Of a DNA stretch of 64,000 bases, positions 1,170 through 63,575 are shown one piece after another; position 1 is the first letter of the stretch, and every line of letters starts with the position of its first letter. The stretch lies in assembly GCA_001783215.1 (NCBI GenBank), contig MFRA01000005.1:29845-93844 (forward strand). The letters are read 5' to 3'. The notes under the pieces were generated by a model, which saw only the letters and a program-made list of their open reading frames with translations, was not told the origin of the DNA and ran no database searches. Origin of the DNA: Candidatus Magasanikbacteria bacterium RIFOXYD1_FULL_40_23 (lineage in GTDB: Bacteria > Patescibacteriota > Patescibacteriia > Magasanikbacterales > GWA2-37-8). A program made the position numbers and the translations under genes.

Positions 1170-3152
1170 ATGTCCGTCTTTCTCTACGCCATATTGCCAG
1201 CAGTTTTGGCAATAGTTTATGGGGTAATTTTAATTGCCTGGATAAACAAACAACCAGCCGGAGATGATCGCATGAAGGCAATTGCCAAAGCTATCCAAGA
1301 AGGAGCAAACGCTTATCTTGGCAGACAATATAGAACTATCGCGGTAGTGGCTCTAGCAGTTTTTGTCCTTATGGGTTTTGGAGTTAACTGGTTAACTGCT
1401 ATTGGTTTCTTGGTGGGCGCAGTGCTTTCCGGATTAGCCGGTATTATTGGTATGAACGTATCTGTAAGAGCCAATATCAAAACTGCAGAAGCTGCCAAAA
1501 AAGGCATGGTAGAGGCACTAAACGTAGCTGTGCGCGGCGGGTCCATCACCGGTCTTATGGTAGTTGGTCTTGGCCTACTAGGCGTAGCTGGTTTTTATTT
1601 AATTACAAAAGATTTATCTGCTTTGGTTGGTTTGGCATTTGGCGGAAGTTTGATTTCTGTATTTGCTAGAATCGGTGGCGGTATATTTACCAAAGCAGCC
1701 GATGTGGGTGCCGATCTTGTTGGTAAAGTAGAAAAAGGTATTCCAGAAGATGATCCACGCAACCCAGCTGTTATTGCCGATAATGTTGGTGACAACGTAG
1801 GAGACTGCGCTGGTATGGCTGCCGACTTATTTGAAACTTACGCTGTAACTGCTATCGCTACTATGGTGCTTAGCGGCTTACTATTTGTAGGCAATGAAAA
1901 AGCTGTTATTTATCCTCTAGTTTTGGGTGGGGTGTCTATCCTTGCTTCTATTGCCGGTACATTCTTTATTCGCTTGGGCAAAAAACAAAACATCATGCAA
2001 GCTTTATACAAAGGCTTGGCTGCATCTGGCTTGCTTGCACTAGTAGCTTTTTATCCTGTCACCAAATGGCTTATGAGCGACTTGGCTGGATACGATGTAA
2101 ACAAAATTTATGCTTCTTCTGTGGTTGGTTTAGTACTTGCTGCTATTATGGTTTGGATTACTGAATACTACACTTCTACCGAATACGCTCCGGTAAAACA
2201 AATTGCCAAAGCAAGTGAAACTGGTCACGGCACAAACGTAATTGCCGGTTTAGCCGTTTCTATGAAATCTACTGCTTGGCCAGTATTATTTATCGTAGCT
2301 GCCATTCTTTCTACATACTGGCTTGCTGGTTTATACGGCGTAGCAGTAGCTGCAATGAGTATGCTTTCTCTAGCAGGTATAATTGTTACAATTGATGCTT
2401 ACGGCCCTATTACAGACAATGCTGGCGGTATTGCAGAGATGAGCGAACTCCCAGAACACGTAAGAGAAATCACAGATAAATTAGATGCTGTAGGAAATAC
2501 TACAAAGGCTGTTACCAAAGGCTACGCAATTGCTAGTGCAGCTTTGGCATCTCTGGTTCTGTTTGCCGATTACACACACAAACTTCCAGAAAGCGTACAG
2601 TTCTTAATCAACGATCCAAAAGTTTTGGCCGGATTATTTATCGGTGGTTTACTGCCATACTTATTCGGTTCTATGCTTATGGAATCCGTTGGTAAAGTAG
2701 CTAGCCAAGTAGTAGAAGAAGTTCGCAGACAGTTCCGAGAAATTCCAGGAATTATGGAACGTACAAACAAGCCAGACTACGGCAAAGCTGTAGATATTGT
2801 TACTAAAGGCGCGATCAATCAAATGGTTCTTCCAGCTGTAATTCCAGTTCTTGCTCCAGTATTAGTTGGCTGGTTGTTGGGCGTAGAAGCTTTGGGTGGA
2901 TTATTACTTGGTACAATTATTACTGGATTATTCGTAGCAATCTCTATGACTACTGGTGGTGGTGCTTGGGACAACGCCAAAAAATATATTGAAAAAGGAA
3001 ACTACGGTGGCAAAGGATCTTTTGCTCATCAAGCAGCTGTAACTGGCGACACCGTTGGTGATCCATACAAAGATACTGCCGGCCCTGCTATCAACCCAAT
3101 GATTAAAGTTGCAAACATTGTTGCGTTGCTGATTGTTGGATTATTGATCTAA
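1170..3152 (+). CDS. hppA: membrane-bound H+(or Na+)-translocating pyrophosphatase
   Basis: 660 aa, polytopic. Carries the H+-PPase signature [20 protein letters not shown] and the DNVGDNVGD motif. Confidence 0.92.
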
Positions 3153-3815: not shown

Positions 3816-4004
3816 ATGAAAATCTCTCTTCGAACAATATCAAAAGTATTAGCTTTTGGTGGAGCGTTTGCCGCCTCGGCACTTATTTGGCTCATAGCAG
3901 AGCATGCAAAATGGACACCCGTACCTACTGCAATAGTGGCAGTAATATCCGCTATCGTCTGTATCATGCTCCCACAAATATTGTTATCAACACGGAGAAA
4001 ATAG
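3816..4004 (+). CDS. small (62 aa) two-helix membrane peptide; SD-led, hypothetical, possibly toxin- or holin-like
   Basis: CAGGAGGAATACG ATG then MKISLRTISKVLAFGGAFAASALIWLIAEHAKWTPVPTAIVAVISAIVCIMLPQILLSTRRK. Convergent with the 4178-4444 gene. Confidence 0.4.
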   Translation: MKISLRTISKVLAFGGAFAASALIWLIAEHAKWTPVPTAIVAVISAIVCIMLPQILLSTRRK

Positions 4005-4117
4005 CTAGACTTTGCCCTGCGTTCAGTGTGTACCACCATGAAGCATGTTGAACAGATAAAATAATTCGTGGTTCATATAAAGCAGCTTTTACAAAGGCTG
4101 TTTTTAAATTTTTTGTA

Positions 4118-8333: not shown

Positions 8334-8603
8334 TTAAGGGTTATCTATTCCACCCTTACTCCACGGATTACAGCGCAATATTCGCCAGGCCGCTAGTGCA
8401 ACACCCACCACTAAACCTCGTTTTCTTATTATTTCATATCCATACTCACTACAGGTGGGCGTAAACCTGCAATAGCCATAGGGGAATTGAGATTTAAACA
8501 GCCCATGATCTGGAGAAATTGTTTTTTGGTATATTTTTATCAAAAATAAGAGCGGCGTTCTTGGCAAGAATAAGAGAAAATCAAGGATTTTTTTTATTTT
8601 CAT
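8334..8603 (-). CDS. yidD: membrane protein insertion efficiency factor YidD
   Basis: [39 protein letters not shown]...[14 protein letters not shown]. The start may be 6 codons upstream at 8621. Confidence 0.8.
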
Positions 8604-8690
8604 ACAAAGTGAAGGAAACAAAAATTTATTTTTATTTCTGAGCGTGTATAGAAAATACCTTTAGTATTTTCATATTAAGCAAACTTTGGA

Positions 8691-16742: not shown

Positions 16743-17294
16743 ATGAGCTTAAATAAGCCAAATTTGACCACAAAAGCCTTGAAAGTTGCAGTAAACTTGC
16801 CAATATTTATGGCTTTACTTAGCAATTTAGCCTTGCCATCTATCGTAAAAGCTGATATTGAGCAAGAAATGGCTAACTCTACACAAAAAATGGCCTTTAC
16901 CGGGATAAAAGCCCCAGAAGTGGCTAAGATGCCAAAAAAATTGGCTTCTGCTGCTGGTGGGTTAGCTCCGGATAAGGTATTGGATGCTGTAATTACAGCC
17001 TATACCAGTACCCCTGGCCAAACCGATGATACTCCGTTTATCGCTGCTAGCGGTAAAAGAGTGCACGACGGCATGATTGCGGCCAACGGTTTACCATTTG
17101 GTACTCAAATCGTAATTCCTGAGCTTTATGGTGATAAGGTCTTCGTAGTAGAAGATCGTATGAATCGCCGTTATGGCTTAGGCCGTATGGATATCTGGTT
17201 AGACACTACTCGCGCTGAAGCTATGAAATTTGGTGTAAAGCGTGTAGAAGTATTAATCTTCTATCCAAAAAAGGCTGTTGCCAAAGTTAAGTAA
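16743..17294 (+). CDS. 3D-domain (MltA/YuiC-like) cell-wall protein
   Basis: AYTSTPGQTDDTPFIAASGKRVHDGMIAANGLPFGTQIVIPELYGDKVFVVEDR carries the three conserved Asp of the 3D domain. N-terminal signal/TM. Confidence 0.7.
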   Translation: MSLNKPNLTTKALKVAVNLPIFMALLSNLALPSIVKADIEQEMANSTQKMAFTGIKAPEVAKMPKKLASAAGGLAPDKVLDAVITAYTSTPGQTDDTPFIAASGKRVHDGMIAANGLPFGTQIVIPELYGDKVFVVEDRMNRRYGLGRMDIWLDTTRAEAMKFGVKRVEVLIFYPKKAVAKVK

Positions 17295-17308
17295 GAATTT
17301 TAAAACAA

Positions 17309-17340
17309 AAAAGGCCCCAGAGATGGGCCTTTTTTGTTTT
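17309..17340 (+). terminator. rho-independent terminator
   Basis: AAGGCCCCAGAGATGGGCCTTTTTTGTTTT. Confidence 0.7.
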
Positions 17341-17360
17341 ATTTCTTTTCAATAATCTCT

Positions 17361-17775
17361 CCCCACTTCTTTAGTAGAAGTGGGCAAGAATCGCTCACGG
17401 TGGAAAGGTTCAGGAAATTTAGGACTCATTTTCTTTAATTTTCAAAACTCAACAGCTTTTTATTCGCAAAAAGCTGTCTCAAACATTGAAAATTTCCTGC
17501 GAAGGAACACTCAAACTCATCTCTAAATTTTAACTTCACCTTTCCAAAGTTCGCCTGGACAATCGACGGACAACGATTCGCTATCCGAGCACATGGTGAG
17601 TGATGCTACTGGCCACGGTGAGGGGGGGGCGGTGCCTTTTTTAAGGCACAGGTAGTCATAGGGTAGTTTGCTGATTGACTGCCTGAGTAAACCCGAACCG
17701 ATTGGCAGTAGCAGAGCGAGACATCAGCTCGGAAACTTTTCCCTCCAGCTTTTGGTTTCAAAAGGTGGAAAATGG
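17361..17775 (+). ncRNA. copy 1 of an unclassified ~430-nt structured repeat/ncRNA candidate (appears 3'-truncated relative to copy 2)
   Basis: About 80% identical to 61940-62355 over conserved blocks. The stem in the 5' hairpin differs between copies in a compensatory way (CCCACUUC/GAAGUGGG here versus CGCUUUC/GAAAGCG in copy 2) with an identical UUUAGUA loop. There is no ORF. Confidence 0.5.
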
Positions 17776-17776
17776 T

Positions 17777-18511
17777 TTATTTTTCTATAATCTCTAGTGA
17801 AAGAATTTTAACTGGACTTACTGGGCTAGACATTGCACCGTCTGCACCCATAGTAGTTGGAGCTGTGGCAATCTTGTCTACTACATCTAGTCCTTTGGTT
17901 ACTTTTCCAAAAATTACATAATCTTTTTGTAGAGGAACGTCGGCATGCATAATAAAGAACTGACTGCCGGCTGAATTTGGAGCAGCGGTTCGAGCCATAG
18001 CTAGAGTACCACGAGTATAATCTCCTTCAAAACTTTCATCTTTAATAGTATAACCAGGTCCACCACGGCCAGTTCCTTCTGGGTCGCCGCCTTGGATCAT
18101 AAATCCTTTAATTATTCTGTGGAAGATTACATTGTCGTAGAAATTTTTCTTGGCCAAGAAAACGAAATTGTTTACGGTGTTTGGAGTGGCGGCTGCATTT
18201 AGAGATATTTCCATTTCTCCGGCAGTTGTTTTCATTTTGGCGGTGTAGGTTTTGTTTTTGTCGATTATCATAATAGGTGTTTTATATTGCGATAAGTCTA
18301 GTGGCTTATCTGAATTAGATTTTGTAGCTTCTTTTGTTGTGGTAGCCAATTCTGCTGGCACTGGTGTTTCGCTGGTTACTTCTACCTGTGTTGACTCGCT
18401 ATATTTATCTGTTTTAGTTTCGGTAGTTGGTGTTGGGGTTGTCTTTGCGCAACCGGCGCCAGCTAGCATAACAACTGCTAGAAGTATCGCTAGAGATGAA
18501 ATTTTTTGCAT
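17777..18511 (-). CDS. ppiB: cyclophilin-type peptidyl-prolyl cis-trans isomerase, lipoprotein
   Basis: FHRIIKGFMIQGGDPEGTGRGGPGY. N-terminal lipobox LAGAGC. Confidence 0.85.
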   Translation of the reverse strand: MQKISSLAILLAVVMLAGAGCAKTTPTPTTETKTDKYSESTQVEVTSETPVPAELATTTKEATKSNSDKPLDLSQYKTPIMIIDKNKTYTAKMKTTAGEMEISLNAAATPNTVNNFVFLAKKNFYDNVIFHRIIKGFMIQGGDPEGTGRGGPGYTIKDESFEGDYTRGTLAMARTAAPNSAGSQFFIMHADVPLQKDYVIFGKVTKGLDVVDKIATAPTTMGADGAMSSPVSPVKILSLEIIEK

Positions 18512-21943: not shown

Positions 21944-22389
21944 GTTGGACCTCCGTGTGTAGGGATTAAACAGCCTTTTTCAATTTCAAGCAAGTATATT
22001 GGCAATAGGGGGCTTCGCCGCATATATTCTCATTCACTCGGAAATAGTTTGGCAAACCAACTGTTTCACTCATTCACTTCGAATATTAAAAAAGGCGATC
22101 ACCCTCTAAATCAATTTGCATTGGTACAGAGGCGGATCGCCTTTACGTTGATACTACTAAGGGGAGGTACTTTCCCCTTTACGGGGAACATGTACTCTAC
22201 CTACCTTGGGTAGTATTAAAATTGACCTCAACCGCTTGTGGGTAGAGCCCTGGTGTCTTGACCCGAAGGTCTCGACTAATTAGGGTTGCCCGGGAAGAAG
22301 TTGGGCGTGCCATTGTTTCTCTGTTTTCTACAGATAACAGTTGCATACCCGCTTTCTCTTTTACAGTTTGAGAGTCATTATCTGCTTAG

Positions 22390-23298: not shown

Positions 23299-23465
23299 AT
23301 ATAGGTAAACCATATTTACTCGCACGCTCGGAAAAGTACATAAATGTACTTTTCGCTCACTTTGCTTGTAAATGAATGAGGAAATAGTTGGTTTACCAAA
23401 CTATTTCCGAGTGAATGAAATTATATGTAAAACTATATAATTGTAATATAGGTAAACCATATTTC
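23299..23465 (+). promoter_or_regulatory. copy G of the ~85-nt leader element family; not fused to a real gene and flanked by 19-bp perfect direct repeats
   Basis: ATATAGGTAAACCATATTT is repeated at 23299-23317 and 23447-23465. Between them are Box1 ACTCGCACGCTCGG, an 11-bp perfect IR GAAAAGTACAT/ATGTACTTTTC, Box2-like GCTCACTTTGC, then ATG opening a 22-codon ORF that contains a 10-bp IR GGAAATAGTT/AACTATTTCC. Confidence 0.5.
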
Positions 23466-29127: not shown

Positions 29128-29300
29128 AATGTAGAGGGATGAGAAGTTTATTTTCAAGTTGAGCGAGAGGAAAGAAAATTTATCTTCTTTCCCGAGCGAA
29201 TGAAGAAAATACCTTAGTATTCCCCATAGCGGGGCGACGGGGCAAATTCCACCCCTTTTCTCTAGCGGTGTTAATAGCAAAAAGCTAACCCGATAACTTT

Positions 29301-32977: not shown

Positions 32978-33364
32978 TTAAGATTTGTTTGCTTCCTGCG
33001 TATTTGCATAGTGTAGCATTCCATCTCGCATATATTCGGCCAGACCCACAGCCACATTTTCGTAGTTGGCTTTGAATCGCGGGTCGTCCACATACATTTT
33101 GGCCATGCCACGGTACATTTGTAAGTTTGGTTCATAAAATGCGCGCAGGCCGTCGTAGTGTCTGGTAATTAATTTTTGTACTTCTTCGCTTTTTGGAGCT
33201 AACCCATTTTTCATTGCGGCTGCAATTTCTTGGGTTAGCGCGCCAGCTTCTTCTAGTACTTTGGCCAGCCCAGCTTTGCCCATCTGTTTTACTCGTTCTT
33301 GGGATTGCTTAAAGGCCTCGGTATGGCCCCAGCGTTGTTTGGCTTCTTCGGTATATATTTCCAT
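32978..33364 (-). CDS. stand-alone TipAS-like antibiotic-recognition domain protein
   Basis: MEIYTEEAKQRWGHTEAFKQSQERVKQMGKAG... is a TipAS-like N-terminus. Leader element F immediately precedes it. Confidence 0.6.
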   Translation of the reverse strand: MEIYTEEAKQRWGHTEAFKQSQERVKQMGKAGLAKVLEEAGALTQEIAAAMKNGLAPKSEEVQKLITRHYDGLRAFYEPNLQMYRGMAKMYVDDPRFKANYENVAVGLAEYMRDGMLHYANTQEANKS

Positions 33365-33448
33365 ATTTGAAATGAGTGAAATAAGTAATCAAATGTTTTG
33401 GTTACTTATGAGCGAGTGAGAATATATGCGGCTTTAGCCCCTATCTCT
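33365..33448 (-). promoter_or_regulatory. leader element F (-10-like TATATT / Box1 CTCACTCGCTC / hairpin ATAAGTAA..TTACTTAT / Box2 CACTCATTTC / aaATG) in front of the TipAS gene
   Basis: Gene-sense reading: ATAGGGGCTAAAGCCGCATATATTCTCACTCGCTCATAAGTAACCAAAACATTTGATTACTTATTTCACTCATTTCAAATATG. Its distal part also encodes the last 12 codons of the MerR ORF. Confidence 0.6.
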
Positions 33449-41490: not shown

Positions 41491-41572
41491 TATAGGGGCT
41501 AAAGCCACATATATACTCATTCGCTCGTAAATAATAAAACAAGTTTGATTATTTAACTCACTCATTTCGTAT
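41491..41572 (+). promoter_or_regulatory. leader element A (TATATA / Box1 ACTCATTCGCTCG / hairpin / Box2 ACTCACTCATTTCG / tatATG) in front of the LUD-domain gene
   Basis: TATAGGGGCTAAAGCCACATATATACTCATTCGCTCGTAAATAATAAAACAAGTTTGATTATTTAACTCACTCATTTCGTATATG. Confidence 0.6.
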
Positions 41573-42190: not shown

Positions 42191-42271
42191 GTATAAGGGC
42201 TTTGTCGTATACATACTCATTCGTTCGTATAAAGTTAAATATTTTTAACTTTATACTCACTCATTTCGAAT
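42191..42271 (+). promoter_or_regulatory. leader element B in front of the DUF45 metallohydrolase gene
   Basis: GTATAAGGGCTTTGTCGTATACATACTCATTCGTTCGTATAAAGTTAAATATTTTTAACTTTATACTCACTCATTTCGAATATG, with a perfect palindromic spacer AAGTTAAATATTTTTAACTT. Confidence 0.6.
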
Positions 42272-42841
42272 ATGCAAAACAGGATAGAGTTGGGTAAAAG
42301 AATTATAAATTATACTCTTCGTATAAGCAGGCGAGCTAGACATCTACGATTGGCTGTCTATAATGGCGGTGATTTTATCGTCACCGCCCCTCGGCACTTG
42401 AGCTTGCCCGCCATAGAGCGGTTTATTATTCGTAAATCCAAATGGGTGCTAGAAAAAATAGATAAACTGATTTCTCTGCCCAAGCCAGTAAAAATAAAAA
42501 GTTCCAGGATTGATTATATAAAATACAAAGCGGTAGCCAGAAAAATTGCCAGAGACAAGATGGGATACTTTAATAAGTTTTATGGGCATAGCTGGAAGAA
42601 TATTTCTATAAAAAATACAAAGACTCGCTGGGGTAGCTGTTCCAAGAAGGGGAATATTAACTTTAATTACAAAATAGCGCTTCTGCCTGAAAAGTTGGTG
42701 GATTATATAATCGTGCACGAGCTGTGCCATTTGGCGCAGTTTAACCACTCGCGAAAGTTTTGGAGTTTGGTAGCCCAAGCAGTCCCCGACCATAAACAGA
42801 TTAGAACAGAGCTTCGCAAGATTGGGCTAACTGCAGGCTAA
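42272..42841 (+). CDS. YgjP/DUF45-family zinc metallohydrolase (WLM-like HExxH)
   Basis: IIVHELCHLAQFNHS. Confidence 0.65.
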   Translation: MQNRIELGKRIINYTLRISRRARHLRLAVYNGGDFIVTAPRHLSLPAIERFIIRKSKWVLEKIDKLISLPKPVKIKSSRIDYIKYKAVARKIARDKMGYFNKFYGHSWKNISIKNTKTRWGSCSKKGNINFNYKIALLPEKLVDYIIVHELCHLAQFNHSRKFWSLVAQAVPDHKQIRTELRKIGLTAG

Positions 42842-44273: not shown

Positions 44274-44660
44274 TTAATTGAAATTTATATTAAAACTAAA
44301 CATTCCCATAGAGCACATTCCGCGAATGCTGGTGCCGGCCTTTTGCGCGGGCACATCTACCAAAGTCTCTCCGGAAGGTGGTAAATTTTTTCTATAATTT
44401 AGTGCTGGGATTACGAGAGATGAAGAGCAATCGAAAGTTCCTCTGGTATCTATCTTTATTACCGTGGGCATATCGGCTTTGGCATTGGTAATTCGTGGAG
44501 TATATCCACCCTTGGCGTTTATAGTTATAATCTGTTTGCCGTCTTTGATTTTTATATTATTGGCGCTAGGACCGGTATCTTTTTCTCCGCCAGAAAATAG
44601 TATAGCGCCGGTAATTACGGCAGCCACGAAGATAAAAATGGCAATAAAAGTTTTTTTCAT
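44274..44660 (-). CDS. secreted cupredoxin-like (PF13473-like) protein, copper-island member
   Basis: Signal/TM, then IKIKDGKQIITINAKGG...IRGMCSMGMFSFNINF. Leader element C precedes it. Confidence 0.3.
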   Translation of the reverse strand: MKKTFIAIFIFVAAVITGAILFSGGEKDTGPSANNIKIKDGKQIITINAKGGYTPRITNAKADMPTVIKIDTRGTFDCSSSLVIPALNYRKNLPPSGETLVDVPAQKAGTSIRGMCSMGMFSFNINFN

Positions 44661-44750
44661 ATGCGAAGTGAGTGAGTAAAATATTTAGCTTACTAAAGTA
44701 TTTTCGAACGAACGAGTATGTATGTGGCTTCAGCCCCTATATTAAAAATT
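44661..44750 (-). promoter_or_regulatory. leader element C in front of the cupredoxin-like gene
   Basis: Gene-sense: AATATAGGGGCTGAAGCCACATACATACTCGTTCGTTCGAAAATACTTTAGTAAGCTAAATATTTTACTCACTCACTTCGCATATG. Confidence 0.6.
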
Positions 44751-45768: not shown

Positions 45769-45840
45769 TGTCATCCTGAACGGAGTGAAGGATCCCTTAC
45801 ACCCAAATGAGAGGGATTCTTCGCTTTGCTCAGAATGACA
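45769..45840. repeat. inverted pair of GTCATYCTGA...GGATC units (family R) between copA and the HMA-DsbD_2 gene
   Basis: TGTCATCCTGAACGGAGTGAAGGATCCCT ... GAGGGATTCTTCGCTTTGCTCAGAATGACA. Confidence 0.6.
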
Positions 45841-45907
45841 GTTAAAGTTAATTTTTAAATCGATTTATCTACTACATAGTGTAGTAGCAATAATTATGTT
45901 TGTCAAC

Positions 45908-48630: not shown

Positions 48631-48969
48631 TTATTTACTCATCATATTTTTCATTGTCCCGCTGCTTTCTGATGCTTTTATATTTTCTTTCATATATTTT
48701 TCTCCCATCATTTCCATATCTTTTCCTTTGGAAACAGCCCCATCATTTTTTAATTCCATTCCCATTTCTTGCATCATTGAGCCGCCTGTTTTCATCATAG
48801 TAGCCATTGTTTGAATAGAGGCTGATTGTTCTTTCATCATGGCAATTGAATCCTGCAGCTCTTTGGTTTGAGCGCTATTATTATTTATATTTTTTCCAGA
48901 TGAATAACCAATGCCTCCGCCAACAGCGAGGGCAATAATTATTCCGATGGTGAATGTTGTAGTTTTCAT
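48631..48969 (-). CDS. Met-rich secreted protein (putative periplasmic Cu(I)-binding, MxM/MMxxM motifs)
   Basis: Signal peptide, then MMKEQSASIQTMATMMKTGGSMMQEMGME...MEMMGEKYM...MKNMMSK. Confidence 0.45.
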   Translation of the reverse strand: MKTTTFTIGIIIALAVGGGIGYSSGKNINNNSAQTKELQDSIAMMKEQSASIQTMATMMKTGGSMMQEMGMELKNDGAVSKGKDMEMMGEKYMKENIKASESSGTMKNMMSK

Positions 48970-49043
48970 ATGTGAAATGAGTGAATATAAAGTTAAATGT
49001 TTTTAACTTTATATGAGCGAATAAGTATATACCTTAGTATATT
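48970..49043 (-). promoter_or_regulatory. leader element D in front of the Met-rich protein gene
   Basis: Gene-sense: AGGTATATACTTATTCGCTCATATAAAGTTAAAAACATTTAACTTTATATTCACTCATTTCACATATG. Confidence 0.55.
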
Positions 49044-52501: not shown

Positions 52502-54259
52502 TTACATTTCCATTCCACCCATATCTTTATCCTTGCCCGACTTAGCAGGAGTAGAACCGGCGCCCTCTTTTGGAGCAGTTTTTATAAGATCATCAAGAAA
52601 CATATTTTCTTTTATTTCCGGTGTGGGATTTTGTATATAACGGTCACCATTCTTAAGTCCGGCATATACTTCCACCACAGCTCCGAGAGTGCGGCCAATG
52701 GTTATTTCTTGCGCAAATATTCTATCGGCTTCTGATATTGCCCATACTACCGGTGTTCCTTTTTCGTTCCAAAGAATTGAGGAATATTTAATTAACTCAA
52801 CAGCAGAGCTAGAAGGAGAAAGTACTCTTATAGAGGATCCCACGGGCCATTTTGTTGATTCTATAAAAATAGCATCAGCCATATATGAACCATCATCAAG
52901 AGAACTACCCACGCCTACAAGCCGTACCTTTTTTATATCGGTTCCAAAACCGGGACGAACGATAGAAAGCAGCTCTCCGATTTTTGGTTTTTGTATATTA
53001 TTTGGCATGCTTATTCTTACTAGTTCATTGCCATTATCATTTGCAGTTACAGTAGCTACTGGCATGCCCGGACCCACAAACTCACCTGGTTTTTTCATAA
53101 TACTAGATATGACACCGCTATTTGGCGCAACTATGGAGTAGCCGCCGCTGATTGAGCCCCTAACACTCGCATAAGCTGTTTCATTGGCGACGACATCTCC
53201 TTCCGACATGGCTAATTCTTTTTCTAACTCGGCAATCATTGCGTCTATCTCAGCCAAGGTATCAATGGATTCTCTTTGTGTATTAACACTTTCCAGTTCC
53301 ATGCTTTTAATTTCACCAAGCATGGCGACAAATTCTGACTGATCTTCAACCAGCATTTTTTTGAGTGTTTCCAGATCGGCTTCCATTAATGTTTCCATAT
53401 CAGCAATAGATGCGTTTGCAAGTTTAATTGCGCTATCAAAGTATAGAGATCCCGAGCGCTCTATTTCTTTTAGATCAAACAATGCCTTGTAAGTAATGTT
53501 GGGGAAATTATTACGCAAATTTTGATCTAAGATTCCGAATGTAGGTTTAAGTGGGATGCTAAAAAATAATCCGGCGGAGGGAATTCTACTTTGGCCATAC
53601 ATCATCGAAAAAGTTTTTGTGATTGATCCATTCAAAACCACTTGCGCCAATTTCTTTTTTGATTCAATTGAAGATAGCAAAATATTTCCGCTTGCGGACG
53701 TGTTTGATCCGATTAAGCCTATTTTTTGTTTATTTGAGCTTTCTGTATCTATACGAAGCTTTTGCAGTTGTGCAATTCTTTTGGCTGTATAAGTGCGTAG
53801 AGCCTCTACGCTCGTACGTGCTTCGGATAACATCTGAGATTTTTCCGAGAGCATGCTTACCATCTCCGGTGTTTGTGGCGGTCGTGAAAGTTTTCCGATA
53901 ATTTGACCTGCGGTGACGCGCTCGCCAATACGCACATACCACCTAGAGATAGTTCCCTCACGATCGGGTTGCACCTGTAAATTATTAAGAGAAATAATTT
54001 CTCCGGGCCATGAATTGTTTGAGGTGCCAGTAATTGAAAAATCCTCTTTTCCAACTATGGCTACTACTGGGCTGTCTGTAATTAGGTTGCTACTAGCAGA
54101 TTTACTATCTGCTATATTTGCTGATGCGCTTTTGCTTATAGAATAGAAAGCAAAGACCCCGGTAGCTATAACTAGCAAGATTGAAACAGATGCTATTGTA
54201 AGCGCCCGTTTTTCTAGCAGCTTAACACTCTGTATTAGGTTTTTTATTTTTTCTTTCAT
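52502..54259 (-). CDS. cusB: RND periplasmic adaptor (membrane fusion protein, CusB-like) with a Met-rich C-terminus
   Basis: N-terminal TM, biotinyl/lipoyl-like GEIISLN...GQIIGKL, C-terminal ...KDMGGMEM. Confidence 0.7.
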   Translation of the reverse strand: MKEKIKNLIQSVKLLEKRALTIASVSILLVIATGVFAFYSISKSASANIADSKSASSNLITDSPVVAIVGKEDFSITGTSNNSWPGEIISLNNLQVQPDREGTISRWYVRIGERVTAGQIIGKLSRPPQTPEMVSMLSEKSQMLSEARTSVEALRTYTAKRIAQLQKLRIDTESSNKQKIGLIGSNTSASGNILLSSIESKKKLAQVVLNGSITKTFSMMYGQSRIPSAGLFFSIPLKPTFGILDQNLRNNFPNITYKALFDLKEIERSGSLYFDSAIKLANASIADMETLMEADLETLKKMLVEDQSEFVAMLGEIKSMELESVNTQRESIDTLAEIDAMIAELEKELAMSEGDVVANETAYASVRGSISGGYSIVAPNSGVISSIMKKPGEFVGPGMPVATVTANDNGNELVRISMPNNIQKPKIGELLSIVRPGFGTDIKKVRLVGVGSSLDDGSYMADAIFIESTKWPVGSSIRVLSPSSSAVELIKYSSILWNEKGTPVVWAISEADRIFAQEITIGRTLGAVVEVYAGLKNGDRYIQNPTPEIKENMFLDDLIKTAPKEGAGSTPAKSGKDKDMGGMEM

Positions 54260-54372
54260 AATCGAAGTGAGTGAATTAAATAATGTAGGAGAAAATAATG
54301 AGCTTGCTCAATTATTTTCGAGTGGATTATTTATGAGCGAATGAGATTATATGGGCCTTAGCCTCTATAAAT
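54260..54372 (-). promoter_or_regulatory. leader element E (perfect TATAAT / Box1 CTCATTCGCTC / long hairpin / Box2 CACTCACTTCG / attATG) in front of cusBA
   Basis: Gene-sense: TATAGAGGCTAAGGCCCATATAATCTCATTCGCTCATAAATAATCCACTCGAAAATAATTGAGCAAGCTCATTATTTTCTCCTACATTATTTAATTCACTCACTTCGATTATG. Confidence 0.6.
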
Positions 54373-57885: not shown

Positions 57886-57895
57886 CTGGTTTAGT

Positions 57896-57968
57896 TGTCA
57901 TTCTGAGTAAAGCGAAGAATCCCTCTTGTCCGAACGAAAGGGATCCTTCACTCCGTTCAGGATGACAG
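57896..57968. repeat. inverted pair of GTCATTCTGA...GGATC units (family R) after trhO, overlapping the 5' end of the next ORF
   Basis: TGTCATTCTGAGTAAAGCGAAGAATCCCTC ttgtccgaacgaa AGGGATCCTTCACTCCGTTCAGGATGACA. Same two arm sequences as at 45769-45840 but in swapped order. Confidence 0.6.
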
Positions 57969-60293: not shown

Positions 60294-61697
60294 GTGCTAT
60301 TTTTCAACGGCAACAAGGCAATATTTAATGATTTTTGTTTCGTAGACAGTCGCAAGCTTTCTTGTTATAGTATGGTAGTTATTTATGGGTTTATGTTGAT
60401 TTTGGCAGTGGCTTATTTTTTACTTTTTACCTGTGTAGCTTTGCATAATTTTCGCTGGGCTATTTTTGCTTTTATCCTCTTACTACCTTCGTATCTTATA
60501 CGTTTTGATGTTTTTTATTTTAAAAAGATAGTTTTTCCTTCCACAGTTTTGGAACTGTCTTTTGGGGCGATTTTCTTGGTTTGGCTTATCAAATATAGTA
60601 GGACAGATTGGTCAAAAATTTGGGCTATAGCCAAAAAACATATCTGGTTCTTTGTCGCCTTTGATTTATTTTTTATATCCTCTGTAGTGAGTATTTTTGT
60701 TAGTGATATGCCCATACCATCGCTGGGCGAGTGGCGCGCGTTTTTCTTGGAGCCAATGATTTTCTTTTTAATTTTAATTGGAAGAAAGGAAATTTTTAAA
60801 ACAAAAGATTTATTTTTGGCTTTGGCTTTTTCTACCCTGAGTATTAGTGTTTTTGCAGTTGCGCAAAAGTTTACTGGTTGGGGGATAGCTACGCCAGAAT
60901 GGTCGGCTGCAGCCACACGACGAGTAACTGCGTTTTTTAGTTCCCCCAATGCAGTTGGTTTGTATCTGGCACCTGTTTTTATGTTAATAGTCGCAGTAAT
61001 AGCTTCTTATGGACGAGACATTAAAGGTTTATTACGACGTCCATCGTATTTGGGGATTGTTGCGACAGCACTTTTTTGTGTATTAGCCATAACGTTTACC
61101 AAATCTCAGGGTACGTGGATAGGTTTGGGTGCGGGAATGCTGACATTTTTGTTTTTTGTAGATTATAAAAAATTGGCTATTGCTTTGGCTGTGGCTGGTG
61201 CAGTGTTTGCTTTGGTGGTGCCATCTATGCGACAGGCAGTCTTGTTTCAAGACCAAGCAAATCAGAATCGCCTAAGACTTTGGGGTTACTCCTGGACATT
61301 TTTGGAAGCATCTCCAAAAAACTTTGTTTTGGGTACAGGAGTGCGTCAGTTTTTTAGAAAAATACAAAAACCGTACTATGACAAGTATGTTATGGAGCGA
61401 CTTATCTATCCGCATAATATATTTCTTAATTTTTGGACAGAGATCGGTTTGGTGGGCATGCTAGCAGTTATGGGGGTACTTGCCTATGTTTTTTGTTTGG
61501 CAAATAGAATCAGAAAAAATAATAAATTAATTGGAGCTGGGCTTATGTCTGCGCTTGTTGTTTTGGTAGTGCATGGGCTAGTCGATGTGCCTTATTTTAA
61601 AAACGACTTAGCGTTTTTGTTTTGGATTTTAATGACGACGGTGTTTATCTTGTATGAAAATATATATAAAAGCGAAGCCGAACTCATACGAGGATAA
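60294..61697 (+). CDS. O-antigen ligase / Wzy_C-family polytopic membrane protein
   Basis: 12+ TM helices. Periplasmic loop ...RLWGYSWTFLEASPKNFVLGTG... and YPHNIFLNFWTEIGLVG. The start may be an internal Met. Confidence 0.6.
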   Translation: MLFFNGNKAIFNDFCFVDSRKLSCYSMVVIYGFMLILAVAYFLLFTCVALHNFRWAIFAFILLLPSYLIRFDVFYFKKIVFPSTVLELSFGAIFLVWLIKYSRTDWSKIWAIAKKHIWFFVAFDLFFISSVVSIFVSDMPIPSLGEWRAFFLEPMIFFLILIGRKEIFKTKDLFLALAFSTLSISVFAVAQKFTGWGIATPEWSAAATRRVTAFFSSPNAVGLYLAPVFMLIVAVIASYGRDIKGLLRRPSYLGIVATALFCVLAITFTKSQGTWIGLGAGMLTFLFFVDYKKLAIALAVAGAVFALVVPSMRQAVLFQDQANQNRLRLWGYSWTFLEASPKNFVLGTGVRQFFRKIQKPYYDKYVMERLIYPHNIFLNFWTEIGLVGMLAVMGVLAYVFCLANRIRKNNKLIGAGLMSALVVLVVHGLVDVPYFKNDLAFLFWILMTTVFILYENIYKSEAELIRG

Positions 61698-61872
61698 AGT
61701 AGAAAAGATAGATGATACGCATTTTGTAGTGGCAGTAAAAGAGCCACCGCAAAATGGGTTGGCCAACAAAGGCATATGCAGAACCTTGGCAAAATATTTT
61801 GAGGTATCGCAATCAATGGTGGTGGTAAAAAAAGGATTTACGAGTAAAAATAAAATTATTGAGATATTGTGA
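61654..61872 (+). CDS. DUF167/YggU-family small protein (UPF0235)
   Basis: IKAKPNSYEDKVEKIDDTHFVVAVKEPPQNGLANKGICRTLAKYFEV. Overlaps the preceding gene's 3' end in another frame. Confidence 0.55.
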   Translation: MKIYIKAKPNSYEDKVEKIDDTHFVVAVKEPPQNGLANKGICRTLAKYFEVSQSMVVVKKGFTSKNKIIEIL

Positions 61873-61879
61873 TTTACAT

Positions 61880-62390
61880 TAATCCACCTTTTGTAACTAC
61901 AACTCATCACCCCATTTTGTCAGCAAAAACATCTTTGCCGCTTTCTTTAGTAGAAAGCGGCGGAAAGAATCGCTCACGGTGGAAACTATCGGATAATTTA
62001 TGACTCATTGTCTCTTCCGCCCTAAACTCGCTTGCGAGCTCAAGCATAGGGCGGATTCCGCCAAGGAACCGTTCCAATTCACCTATAAATTGCACCGCTA
62101 GTTTCCAATGTTCGCCTAGACAATCGACGGACAACGGCTCGCTATCCGAGCATATGGCGAGCGATGCTACTGGCCACGGTGAGGGTGAGCAGTGCCTTCT
62201 TTAAGGCACAGGTAGTCATAAGGTAGTTTGCTGATTGACTACCTGAGCGAACCTGAGCCGATTGGCAGTAGCGGAGTGAGACATCAGCTCGGAAACTTTT
62301 CCCTCCAGCTTTTGGTTACAAAAGGTGGAAAACGTACTTCTACTAAAGAAGTGACAAGTAAAAGGTTTTTGGTTCCAAAAGGTGGAAATG
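61880..62390 (+). ncRNA. copy 2 (apparently complete) of the unclassified ~430-500-nt structured repeat/ncRNA candidate
   Basis: Conserved blocks shared with 17361-17775. 5' hairpin CGCUUUC-UUUAGUA-GAAAGCG. A 3' segment CUUCUACUAAAGAAG is complementary to the 5' hairpin arm. A flank CCACCTTTTGTAAC (61884) is complementary to GGTTACAAAAGGTGG (62320). Internal hairpins are preserved with a G-U to A-U change between copies. Confidence 0.5.
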
Positions 62391-62435
62391 AGGGTTTGTT
62401 AAAAAGAAAAAGATTTAAATTTTAATTGAAATAGT

Positions 62436-63575
62436 ATGGATAAAGTATATAAAGACTCGCTCAAGCTCCACAAAAAATTCCATGGAAAATTGGAATTGAA
62501 AAGTAAAGTACCAATAAAAAATAAAGCAGATCTTTCTCTTGCTTATACTCCAGGAGTAGCGCAGGTATGCCGTGAAATTGGCAAAGACAAAAGTTTGGCG
62601 CGTGAATATACTATAAAGAAAAATACCGTAGCTGTAATTTCTGATGGCTCGGCAATTTTGGGTTTGGGAAATCTGGGCCCAGAAGCAGCTATTCCAGTAA
62701 TGGAAGGTAAGGCTGTGCTATTTAAAGAGTTTGGGGGAGTGGATGCGTTTCCAATTTGTTTGGATACTCAGGATACGGAAGAGATTATTAAAACTGTAAA
62801 ATATTTGGCGCCGGTATTTGGTGGTATAAATCTAGAAGATATCTCTGCGCCAAGATGTTTTGAAATAGAAGAAAGATTAAAAAAGGAAATGTCTATTCCG
62901 GTAATGCACGACGATCAGCACGGTACAGCGGTGGTGGTGCTTGCTGCTATGATAAATGCGTTAAAGATAAAAAGATTAGATAAAAGCAAGGCTAAAGTAG
63001 TAATTAGCGGCGCGGGTGCAGCAGGTACAGCTGTAGCCAAAATTTTGATGAACTATGGTTTTAAAAATGTATCTGTTTGTGATAGCAAAGGTTTAATTTA
63101 CAAAGAGAGAGGGGATTTAAATAATGCAAAGTTGGACTTGGCTATTCTTACCGGCGCCAGCGCAGTACCGGATATTAGTCTAAAGGGTGTGTTGAAAAAT
63201 ACGGATGTATTTATTGGGGTAAGTGGTCCAAATATCATAACTCGTGCCGAAGTGAAGAGTATGAATGCAAAGCCGATTATTTTGGTGCTCGCCAATCCGG
63301 TGCCGGAAATTATGCCAGATGAAGCTAGGGCAGGTGGCGCATTTATTATTGGTACTGGCAGATCCGACTTTCCTAATCAAATAAATAATGTGTTGGCCTT
63401 CCCGGGAATATTTAGAGGGGCGTTGGATAATAAAGTAACTCAGATTACAGAAGAGATGCTGGTAAAAGCGGCCAAGAATTTGGCAAACTATGTAAAGAAA
63501 CCAAGCAGAGAAAATATTTTGCCAAAGCCGTTTGATAAAGGTGTGGCCAAGGCGGTGGCTAAAGCCATTAGGTAA
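62436..63575 (+). CDS. maeA: NAD(P)-dependent malic enzyme (short ~380-aa form)
   Basis: AYTPGVAQVCREI, and the NAD-binding VISGAGAAGTAVAKIL. Confidence 0.8.
   Translation: MDKVYKDSLKLHKKFHGKLELKSKVPIKNKADLSLAYTPGVAQVCREIGKDKSLAREYTIKKNTVAVISDGSAILGLGNLGPEAAIPVMEGKAVLFKEFGGVDAFPICLDTQDTEEIIKTVKYLAPVFGGINLEDISAPRCFEIEERLKKEMSIPVMHDDQHGTAVVVLAAMINALKIKRLDKSKAKVVISGAGAAGTAVAKILMNYGFKNVSVCDSKGLIYKERGDLNNAKLDLAILTGASAVPDISLKGVLKNTDVFIGVSGPNIITRAEVKSMNAKPIILVLANPVPEIMPDEARAGGAFIIGTGRSDFPNQINNVLAFPGIFRGALDNKVTQITEEMLVKAAKNLANYVKKPSRENILPKPFDKGVAKAVAKAIR

Follow-up and report, generated by a model that had tools for sequence, protein, structure and literature searches.

The question raised by this locus is what kind of genetic object occurs twice, without coding content, in a 64-kb stretch of a Magasanikbacteria genome (64,000 nt, referred to here as the window). 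A first-pass annotation had reported two structured, ORF-less copies of one block, and had proposed either a large noncoding RNA or a structured, non-autonomous element. The copies themselves are as described: the shared blocks lie where they had been placed, and about 415 nt can be aligned between them. Box and block searches, with 0 matches expected by chance, recovered exactly two elements in the window, at 17359–17772 (copy 1) and 61934–62332 (copy 2). No ORF is common to both copies, their differences show no codon periodicity, and one of these differences is a 1-nt indel, findings on which a coding block was rejected.

Each copy is comprised of two homologous modules of ~190 nt, referred to as L (minus strand) and R (plus strand), that are arranged head-to-head around a 28-nt center. 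Evidence for this layout comes from a covariance model, CM R1, that was built from R modules only, i.e., from the conserved 3′ half of the element on the plus strand. Since the model also matches the 5′ half of each copy on the opposite strand and over its full length, the element is a head-to-head inverted pair of homologous modules. In copy 2, module L (61934–62116, minus strand) matches the full model with 65.5 bits (E = 6.7e-13) and is a diverged paralogue of module R (62145–62332, plus strand; 197.8 bits); the center of symmetry, TAGACAATCGACGGACAACGGCTCGCTA, spans 62117–62144. In copy 1, module L (17359–17555, minus strand; 57.7 bits, E = 4e-11) and module R (17584–17772, plus strand; 188.3 bits) flank a center at 17556–17583 that forms the hairpin AAUCG-ACGGACAA-CGAUU. 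A small central hairpin also forms in L028 and L039A, two related elements from other genomes, and the 5′ ends of the modules are constantly 20–28 nt apart in six divergent pairs. Module R is 91.5% identical between copies 1 and 2 and module L 59%, while L and R within one element share 40–45% identity. The interior of module L is free in sequence and constrained in pairing. What had been taken for a divergent middle of ~170 nt is instead the interior of the second module, read on the minus strand.

In module R of copy 2, a helix designated P1 (CCGAGC/GCUCGG) is followed by a long, irregular stem that forks at its tip, then by the linker AAACUUUUCCCU, a terminal hairpin (62305–62328), and AAAA. 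The 3′-terminal hairpin of module L in the same copy is located at 61940–61963 (minus strand). In copy 1, the terminal hairpins occupy 17363–17385 in module L (minus strand) and 17745–17768 in module R (plus strand), the latter again followed by AAAA. The “5′ hairpin” with a UUUAGUA loop that was described earlier does exist, but it belongs to module L, where it is the 3′-terminal hairpin read backwards (CUUC-UACUAAA-GAAG). Compensatory changes in its stem, CCCACUUC/GAAGUGGG versus CGCUUUC/GAAAGCG around the UUUAGUA loop, are real, as are those of another helix, CAGGUAGUCA/UGACUGCCUG versus a form with UGACUACCUG as its second strand. The GUGCCUU-loop-AAGGCAC hairpin is likewise kept in both copies.

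Copy 2 carries additional hairpins outside of its two modules. Directly after module R lies an extra L-type terminal hairpin, ACUUC-UACUAAA-GAAGU (62336–62352, plus strand), and L028 and L051 carry such a hairpin at the equivalent position. Further downstream, a second R-type terminal hairpin, GGUUUUUGGUUCCAAAAGGUGG plus AAA (62364–62388, plus strand; an exact box match), runs into an A-rich tail that ends at 62413; the same box1–hairpin–box2 order recurs in L039A. On the other side, beyond the end of module L, is a partial R-type hairpin arm, GUUACAAAAGGUGG on the minus strand (61884–61897; box match with three mismatches). The first-pass annotation had noted a flank at 61884 and a 3′ segment of copy 2 that can pair with the 5′ arm, and had seen in the pairing of the flank a P1-type helix or terminal inverted repeats closing the unit. 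Both the inverted box, CCACCTTTTGTAAC (61884–61897), and the extra 3′ hairpin at 62336–62352 are present, but the proposed closing helices are better read as extra inverted copies of the terminal hairpins of the modules. As for copy 1, one same-species assembly ends inside its module R (L009, 3722–3905), with 97.3% identity to copy 1 and 94.6% to copy 2; the variant could represent strain variation, a chimeric assembly, or a third copy.

Relatives of the element are found in five other MAGs, which contribute 15 modules for a total of 19 modules in 6 genomes. A pattern search of genome contigs with TTTTGGTTNYRRRRGGTGGAAA returned 32 loci, eight of which hold true homologues by nhmmer, blastn, and covariance model; the remaining 24 are chance coding matches. 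The eight loci belong to MAGs ERP119705_co24_1001 (L028, L051), SRP193066_co2_436 (L043), Patescibacteria H51-bin093_1 (L039), WY1.bin50 (L025), and WY1.bin77 (L046, L047, L048), and their modules are found paired (divergently or convergently), alone, or truncated. For instance, CM R1 detects L modules on the plus strand in L028 (2591–2773; 59.2 bits, E = 1.8e-11) and L051 (2314–2475; 39.5 bits, E = 5.8e-07). Modules are paired divergently in L025 and convergently in L046, L047, and L048, the last of which includes a 3′-truncated module remnant; L043 holds one R module on its own. In L039, two divergently oriented R-type modules are joined at a central palindrome and accompanied by a third copy that is partly truncated; the L039A unit is made up of R and a portion of L. 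Searching with an nhmmer profile of the full set of 19 modules yielded no further loci, and an initial genome-contig pattern (14 plain bases with R/Y flanks) had no match. The exact 20-mer CAGCTCGGAAACTTTTCCCT matched two metagenome contigs, L013 and L014, both in unrelated coding sequence. These two matches extend past the 20-mer (L013 238–266; L014 3513–3538, with 26/26 nt in L014) and both encode LEGKVSEL on the opposite strand, a coincidence that is probably due to chance.

Folding of the plus strand is markedly more stable than that of dinucleotide shuffles for both copies (z = −7.8 and −6.8), and the minus strand of copy 2 also scores well by this measure (z = −6.1). A consensus structure was taken from eight aligned 3′ halves (R modules). 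It consists of P1, which reads CCGAGC/GCUCGG or GCGAGC/GCUCGC depending on the module, a long irregular stem in which the purine loops GGUGA and GNGA are conserved, a forked tip that varies, a U-rich linker, and a 10-bp terminal hairpin followed by A’s. Every module takes this one common architecture on its own strand. Among the eight R modules, 92% of alignment cells are paired, versus 30.8–43.9% in slid controls, and both sides have changed in 20 of the 43 pairs, versus 9.7±1.9 in shuffles (0/500 reach 20) and 3–9 in slid controls. When all 19 modules are considered, in an alignment fitted to the model, 37/43 pairs show changes on both sides.

Sequence conservation is greatest toward the 3′ end, where the last ~45 nt (linker, terminal hairpin, and A-run) are invariant or nearly so across six genomes. 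The near-invariant 3′ block of all true members is GCUCGGAAACUUUUCCCUCCAGCUUUUGGUUACAAAAGGUGGAAAA, with GCAAACUUUUGGCUCCACC... in the WY1 bins and L039A/B. Second modules of the WY1 bins end in CCACCUUUU-CUAA-AAAAGGUGG, a form that bridges the L and R hairpin types, and modules also share the conserved junction CUGUUUGAG/GAGUUCAGG. At the linker that follows P1 in all modules (e.g., window 62291–62304), two alternative partners are available to the final base of the 3′ strand of P1, namely the 5′ strand of P1 and the end of this U-rich linker. This P1/linker trio co-varies, being G/C/C in the window, L028, L051, and L043 and C/G/G in the WY1 bins and L039A/B, which hints at alternative pairings or a base triple.

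The structure matches no Rfam 15 family; the earlier annotation had likewise seen no fit to RNase P RNA, tmRNA, SRP RNA, or a cobalamin riboswitch. A search of the whole window against Rfam 15 at the gathering threshold reported two tRNAs only, and a search of both copies at E up to 10 gave low-scoring noise only, none of it inside the conserved modules. Families whose thresholds were not reached include OLE, GOLLD, ROOL, HEARO, IS605-orfB, group I/II introns, 6S, RNase P, tmRNA, and SRP. Phage and plasmid BLAST searches and scans of viral contigs gave no match to the element, and literature searches returned no description of such an element in CPR bacteria. This family of ORF-less insertions in CPR bacteria has apparently not been described before.

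The strand on which the fold is selected can be read from the wobble pairs. In sense orientation, G·U and A·C pairs number 20 and 1 in the R set, 22 and 1 in the L set, and 25 and 1 in the set of WY1 first modules; the antisense counts are 11 and 6, 3 and 5, and 7 and 2, respectively. Since G·U is tolerated and A·C is not, the form under selection is a single strand, the counts of the R set assign its fold to the plus strand, and the asymmetry of the L set places selection of the module L structure on the minus strand of the window. Energies follow the same pattern. In separate alignments, RNAalifold favors the sense strand in each of the four module sets, and for 18 of 19 modules the MFE is lower in sense than in antisense, with an advantage of up to 22 kcal/mol; module L of copy 1, for example, folds 11 kcal/mol better in sense than in antisense. 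With its left half selected on the minus strand, the element is not accounted for by a single 430-nt plus-strand RNA, which fails to explain that half.

Proteins encoded next to the copies match Candidatus Magasanikbacteria RIFOXYD2_FULL_39_9, a groundwater bacterium of the CPR. Both insertions in the window can be compared with relatives that lack them. Copy 1 is bounded on one side by a 183-aa ORF and its terminator (16743–17341) and on the other by a convergent PPIase gene (17777–18511, minus strand), a gap of 482 nt here versus 55 nt in the closest relative, L021; in two other relatives, a 65-aa gene sits between the 183-aa ORF and PPIase. Copy 2 lies between a DUF167 gene (61654–61872) and a malic-enzyme gene (62436–63575). 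This spacer measures 563 nt here versus 16 nt in relatives L015 and L018, whose malic enzymes are 95% and 87% identical and whose empty sites set the limits of the insertion. Because copy 2 is situated within what is a 16-nt operon junction in these relatives, expression of malic enzyme would most likely require read-through of the element. At a third locus, 14 loci syntenic with L039 are all without the module and so provide further empty sites. Several independent assemblies break exactly at the repeat.

Other small elements have been observed at the same junctions. A third relative has an unrelated 175-nt palindromic repeat between DUF167 and malic enzyme, and unrelated GC-rich palindromic repeats of the GTCATTC...GAATGAC type (L016 9826–10000, L067 ~2700–2930, L014 ~3860–4098) occupy module hot spots in relatives, namely the DUF167–malic enzyme and TPR–LAGLIDADG junctions. 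It seems that different small elements have settled at these two junctions on repeated occasions.

Copy 1 is flanked by the direct repeats TTTTCAATAATCTCT (17347–17361) and TTTTCTATAATCTCT (17781–17795), which match at 14/15 positions; 0/5000 random window pairs and 10/5000 shuffles equal this match. The right repeat constitutes the native last codons of the PPIase ORF, which are also present in relatives without the element. Read on the minus strand together with its surroundings, the left repeat still spells EIIEKK-stop, a remnant of a duplicated PPIase 3′ end; about 20 nt of target were therefore duplicated at copy 1 (range 15–22 nt). At copy 2, a possible left repeat, GATTTACATT (61871–61880), has its partner, GATTTAAATT, at 62412–62421, although this 9/10 match is not significant, being equaled by 337/5000 random window pairs. 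Further copies and flanking target-site duplications had both been suggested as things to look for: the former exist as the 15 modules in five other MAGs, and the latter is significant at copy 1 but not at copy 2. Empty sites in relatives, together with the flanking repeat and the existence of truncated copies, agree with the earlier notion of a structured, non-autonomous element. The family is insertion-polymorphic and ORF-less, with the single-stranded fold of the module under strong selection on its own strand.

The modules sit beside housekeeping genes that are unrelated to one another and differ at every locus (DeoC, TrmB, ECF sigma, RmuC, TPR, NDK, RNase HII, TerC, T4SS pilin), and none recurs. 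The ~50 window ORFs and the surroundings of the other copies yielded no transposase, integrase, reverse transcriptase, or HUH enzyme, and the ~50 window ORFs no homing endonuclease. A sigma-70-like promoter is not evident in or around the 28-nt center; canonical promoters do exist in these genomes. In L039, a LAGLIDADG ORF (2688–3122, minus strand) is positioned between module copies within the syntenic order TPR–LAGLIDADG–RmuC–S20, a locus at which tRNA-like sequences were also read by eye. The LAGLIDADG gene is present in 14 related loci, none of which (0/14) has the module. Its product is a compact, single-motif protein of 118–164 aa, with 51 homologues (P0241–P0291) at 57–100% identity. 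In many CPR genomes the gene stands free between the TPR gene and rmuC. Its promoter is a perfect TTGACA-17-TATAAT, and the gene looks domesticated rather than intron-borne. A group I intron with a LAGLIDADG endonuclease was rejected as an identity for the element, given that there is no Rfam intron match, all copies are intergenic, and the LAGLIDADG gene is a syntenic resident. Likewise rejected were a retron or other RT-associated ncRNA, for which no RT domain occurs in flanking ORFs at any locus, and a tyrosine-recombinase core site at the terminal hairpins, whose loops are conserved, whose arms covary, and whose spacer length varies from 3 to 7 nt.

Among known systems, REPINs and BIMEs come closest in layout, and large ncRNAs and ssDNA origins in degree of structural conservation; wherever they could be tested, the features that define these families fail. 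Like REPINs and BIMEs, the element is extragenic, ORF-less, and non-autonomous, its unit is an inverted doublet (seen in the window, L028, L051, L039, L025, L046, L047, and L048, all intergenic), two unit types form mosaics in alternating orientation, and a folded single strand is the presumed substrate. REP doublets are mobilized by RAYT transposases. In contrast, REPs are simple hairpins of 20–40 nt, whereas the units here are forked, multi-helix structures of ~190 nt; the copy number observed is low, one insertion has a 15–22-nt flanking duplication, there is no GTAG/CGTC tag, and no RAYT (Y1 HUH transposase) was found among the ~50 window ORFs or beside other copies. Identity as a REP unit was rejected on size and tag, since the units measure 162–224 nt with a forked fold instead of 20–40 nt with a GTAG/CGTC-type tag.

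MITEs such as Correia, ERIC, and RUP resemble the element in being ORF-less, intergenic, and a few hundred nt long, with inverted ends, presence/absence polymorphism, and, putatively, co-transcription with neighboring genes. What sets the element apart is that its arms, diverged paralogues at 40–45% identity, keep a fold that covaries and is strand-specific. No parent IS turned up in the sequences examined, and target duplications of one fixed, short length were not seen. Features that IS200/IS605 ends, PATEs, and omega/reRNAs share with it are hairpins with conserved loops and covarying stems and, putatively, mobility via folded ssDNA and a structured RNA encoded at the end of the element. 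However, IS200/IS605 elements have both end hairpins on one strand and make no target duplication; moreover, the IS605-orfB and HEARO models of Rfam are unmatched here, and no TnpA, TnpB, or IscB lies nearby. The large RNAs OLE, GOLLD, ROOL, and raiA also combine strong covariation with lack of an ORF and are sometimes tied to mobile DNA, but the element has no Rfam match, is insertion-polymorphic between close relatives, and presents its ~190-nt unit in inverted pairs on opposite strands. Finally, ssoA origins of rolling-circle plasmids are folded single strands of ~150–200 nt that work in one orientation and have a CCGAG-containing conserved stem base; they bear an RSB motif, TTATGCCGAGAAAATTT, at the stem base and CS-6 (TAGCGT) in the terminal loop (PMC4598088). 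In the modules, CS-6 is absent from the loops and RSB is partial, and the elements are chromosomal and dispersed, with no rep gene or dso. An ssoA origin was rejected, as only the CCGAG core resembles RSB and TAGCG occurs solely inside a stem of some copies.

On balance, the element is probably, albeit with considerable room for doubt, a selfish, non-autonomous repeat that propagates by way of a single-stranded intermediate and whose two-module layout makes it independent of orientation. With one module per strand, whichever strand is exposed would carry one sense module at its distal (3′) end. The exposed strand might be a read-through transcript from either neighboring gene (no promoter of the element’s own is detectable) or the lagging-strand template. 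The near-invariant last ~45 nt would then serve as a handle for a trans-acting enzyme whose gene lies elsewhere in the genome. We lean modestly toward RNA over ssDNA as the folded form, on the basis of the 6–13% G·U pairs, tandem G·A pairs, and A-rich 3′ ends, along with the intact 3′ ends, distal truncations, and long duplication, none of which is decisive. Several findings weigh against the selfish-repeat reading: the ~50 window ORFs and the surroundings of the other copies gave no candidate mobilizing enzyme, there are two elements only in 64 kb and 19 modules from 6 genomes only, the direct repeat is significant at one insertion only, and we know of no common bacterial transposition mechanism that a 15–22-nt duplication would fit. 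In addition, the conservation of R (91.5% within the genome, with 40-nt stretches identical across genomes) also fits an RNA that is useful to the host.

This last point leads to an unlikely alternative in which the modules are paralogous cellular sRNA genes, divergent here and convergent in the WY1 bins, that serve a host function such as protein sequestration and were spread between CPR lineages by horizontal transfer. Strong purifying selection on structure and on long stretches of sequence, a fold that is specific to the own strand of each module, and the persistence of distinct L and R types across genomes would all be expected of such genes. Truncated, fused, and solo modules would not be, nor would the absence of conserved synteny, of modules at three loci in the closest relatives, and of any sigma-70-like promoter in or beside the 28-nt center of genomes that do have canonical promoters. 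A further alternative is a SINE-like retroposon, whose read-through RNA would be recognized by a reverse transcriptase at the terminal hairpin and A-run and target-primed into AT-rich sites. In favor of this scheme, which we regard as quite unlikely, 3′ ends are intact and invariant and several copies are cut at the far end, as in the solo R module of L043, the R plus partial L of L039A, and copy 1, which is shorter than copy 2 on the outside. The A-rich 3′ ends, the RNA-like wobble pattern, and flanking duplications that are long and unequal (15–22 nt versus at most about 10 nt at the second site) agree with it as well. Yet L048 holds a 3′-truncated module remnant, the duplication is significant at one site only, no reverse transcriptase was seen at any locus, and, to our knowledge, no SINE-like target-primed mechanism operates in bacteria.

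If the element were instead an ordinary cut-and-paste MITE, the modules would be long TIRs, with hairpins that are incidental or that affect the stability of neighboring mRNAs, as in Correia, ERIC, and REP. Its inverted-repeat layout, intergenic location, lack of an ORF, insertion polymorphism, and flanking direct repeat are all typical of that class. However, binding of a protein to double-stranded TIRs explains neither the compensatory changes, nor the G·U/A·C asymmetry of each module’s own strand, nor the conserved bulges; the fold is kept between arms that are just 40–45% identical, and no parent IS was found. A MITE of this kind is very improbable. Least probable of these alternatives is that the whole block is one structured ncRNA of ~430 nt on the plus strand, or that it provides sso/ssi-type ssDNA signals on both strands. 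The z-score of −7.8 for the whole plus strand is in line with the former, which the first-pass annotation had placed in the OLE/GOLLD/ROOL size class, but the left half is an inverted homologue of the right half, and selection on the structure of the left half acts on the minus strand (G·U 22/A·C 1 in sense versus 3/5 in antisense). An sso is a strand-specific, folded ssDNA of similar size whose RSB shares the CCGAG core with P1 (PMC4598088), but TAGCGT occurs in no loop of the modules, there is no rep gene, dso, or plasmid context, and no phage or plasmid match was obtained.

A bolder extension of the selfish-repeat reading, and a doubtful one, is that the module represents a new class of functional RNA, either a recognition or priming scaffold or a ribozyme, that drives an RNA-mediated mobile element, with read-through from either side yielding an active 3′-terminal module. 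If so, bacteria would have in this element their own equivalent of SINE-like retroposons or self-processing satellite RNAs. Structural selection to this degree, with dozens of compensatory changes in two arms that fold on opposite strands, is usual for ribozymes and riboswitches, not for MITEs or REPs. Members of the CPR (Patescibacteria) have tiny genomes with little spare DNA and nonetheless keep and spread a gene-less element of 0.4–0.5 kb, which may reveal either a new way for non-autonomous DNA to move, through a structure-recognizing enzyme acting on RNA or ssDNA, or a new class of structured RNA. On the practical side, the element breaks metagenome assemblies, and the module covariance model is ready for use in annotating CPR genomes.

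Other repeats were also noted in the window. Short intergenic repeats of a second family, with a core like CATATATTCTCATTCACTCGGAAATA or TTTTCATATGCGAAGTGAGTGAG, lie close to gene starts in either orientation, at 22005–22067, 23381–23427, 33355–33444, 41492–41539, 44651–44683, 48960–48992, and 54250–54282, and also at 8593–8661 and 29147–29215. They may represent a common promoter or leader motif, or else a further small repeat. In addition, two inverted repeat pairs unrelated to the modules connect distant intergenic regions: 45769–45846 with 57890–57967 (78 nt, 86% complementary) and 42210–42278 with 48963–49031 (69 nt, 84% complementary).
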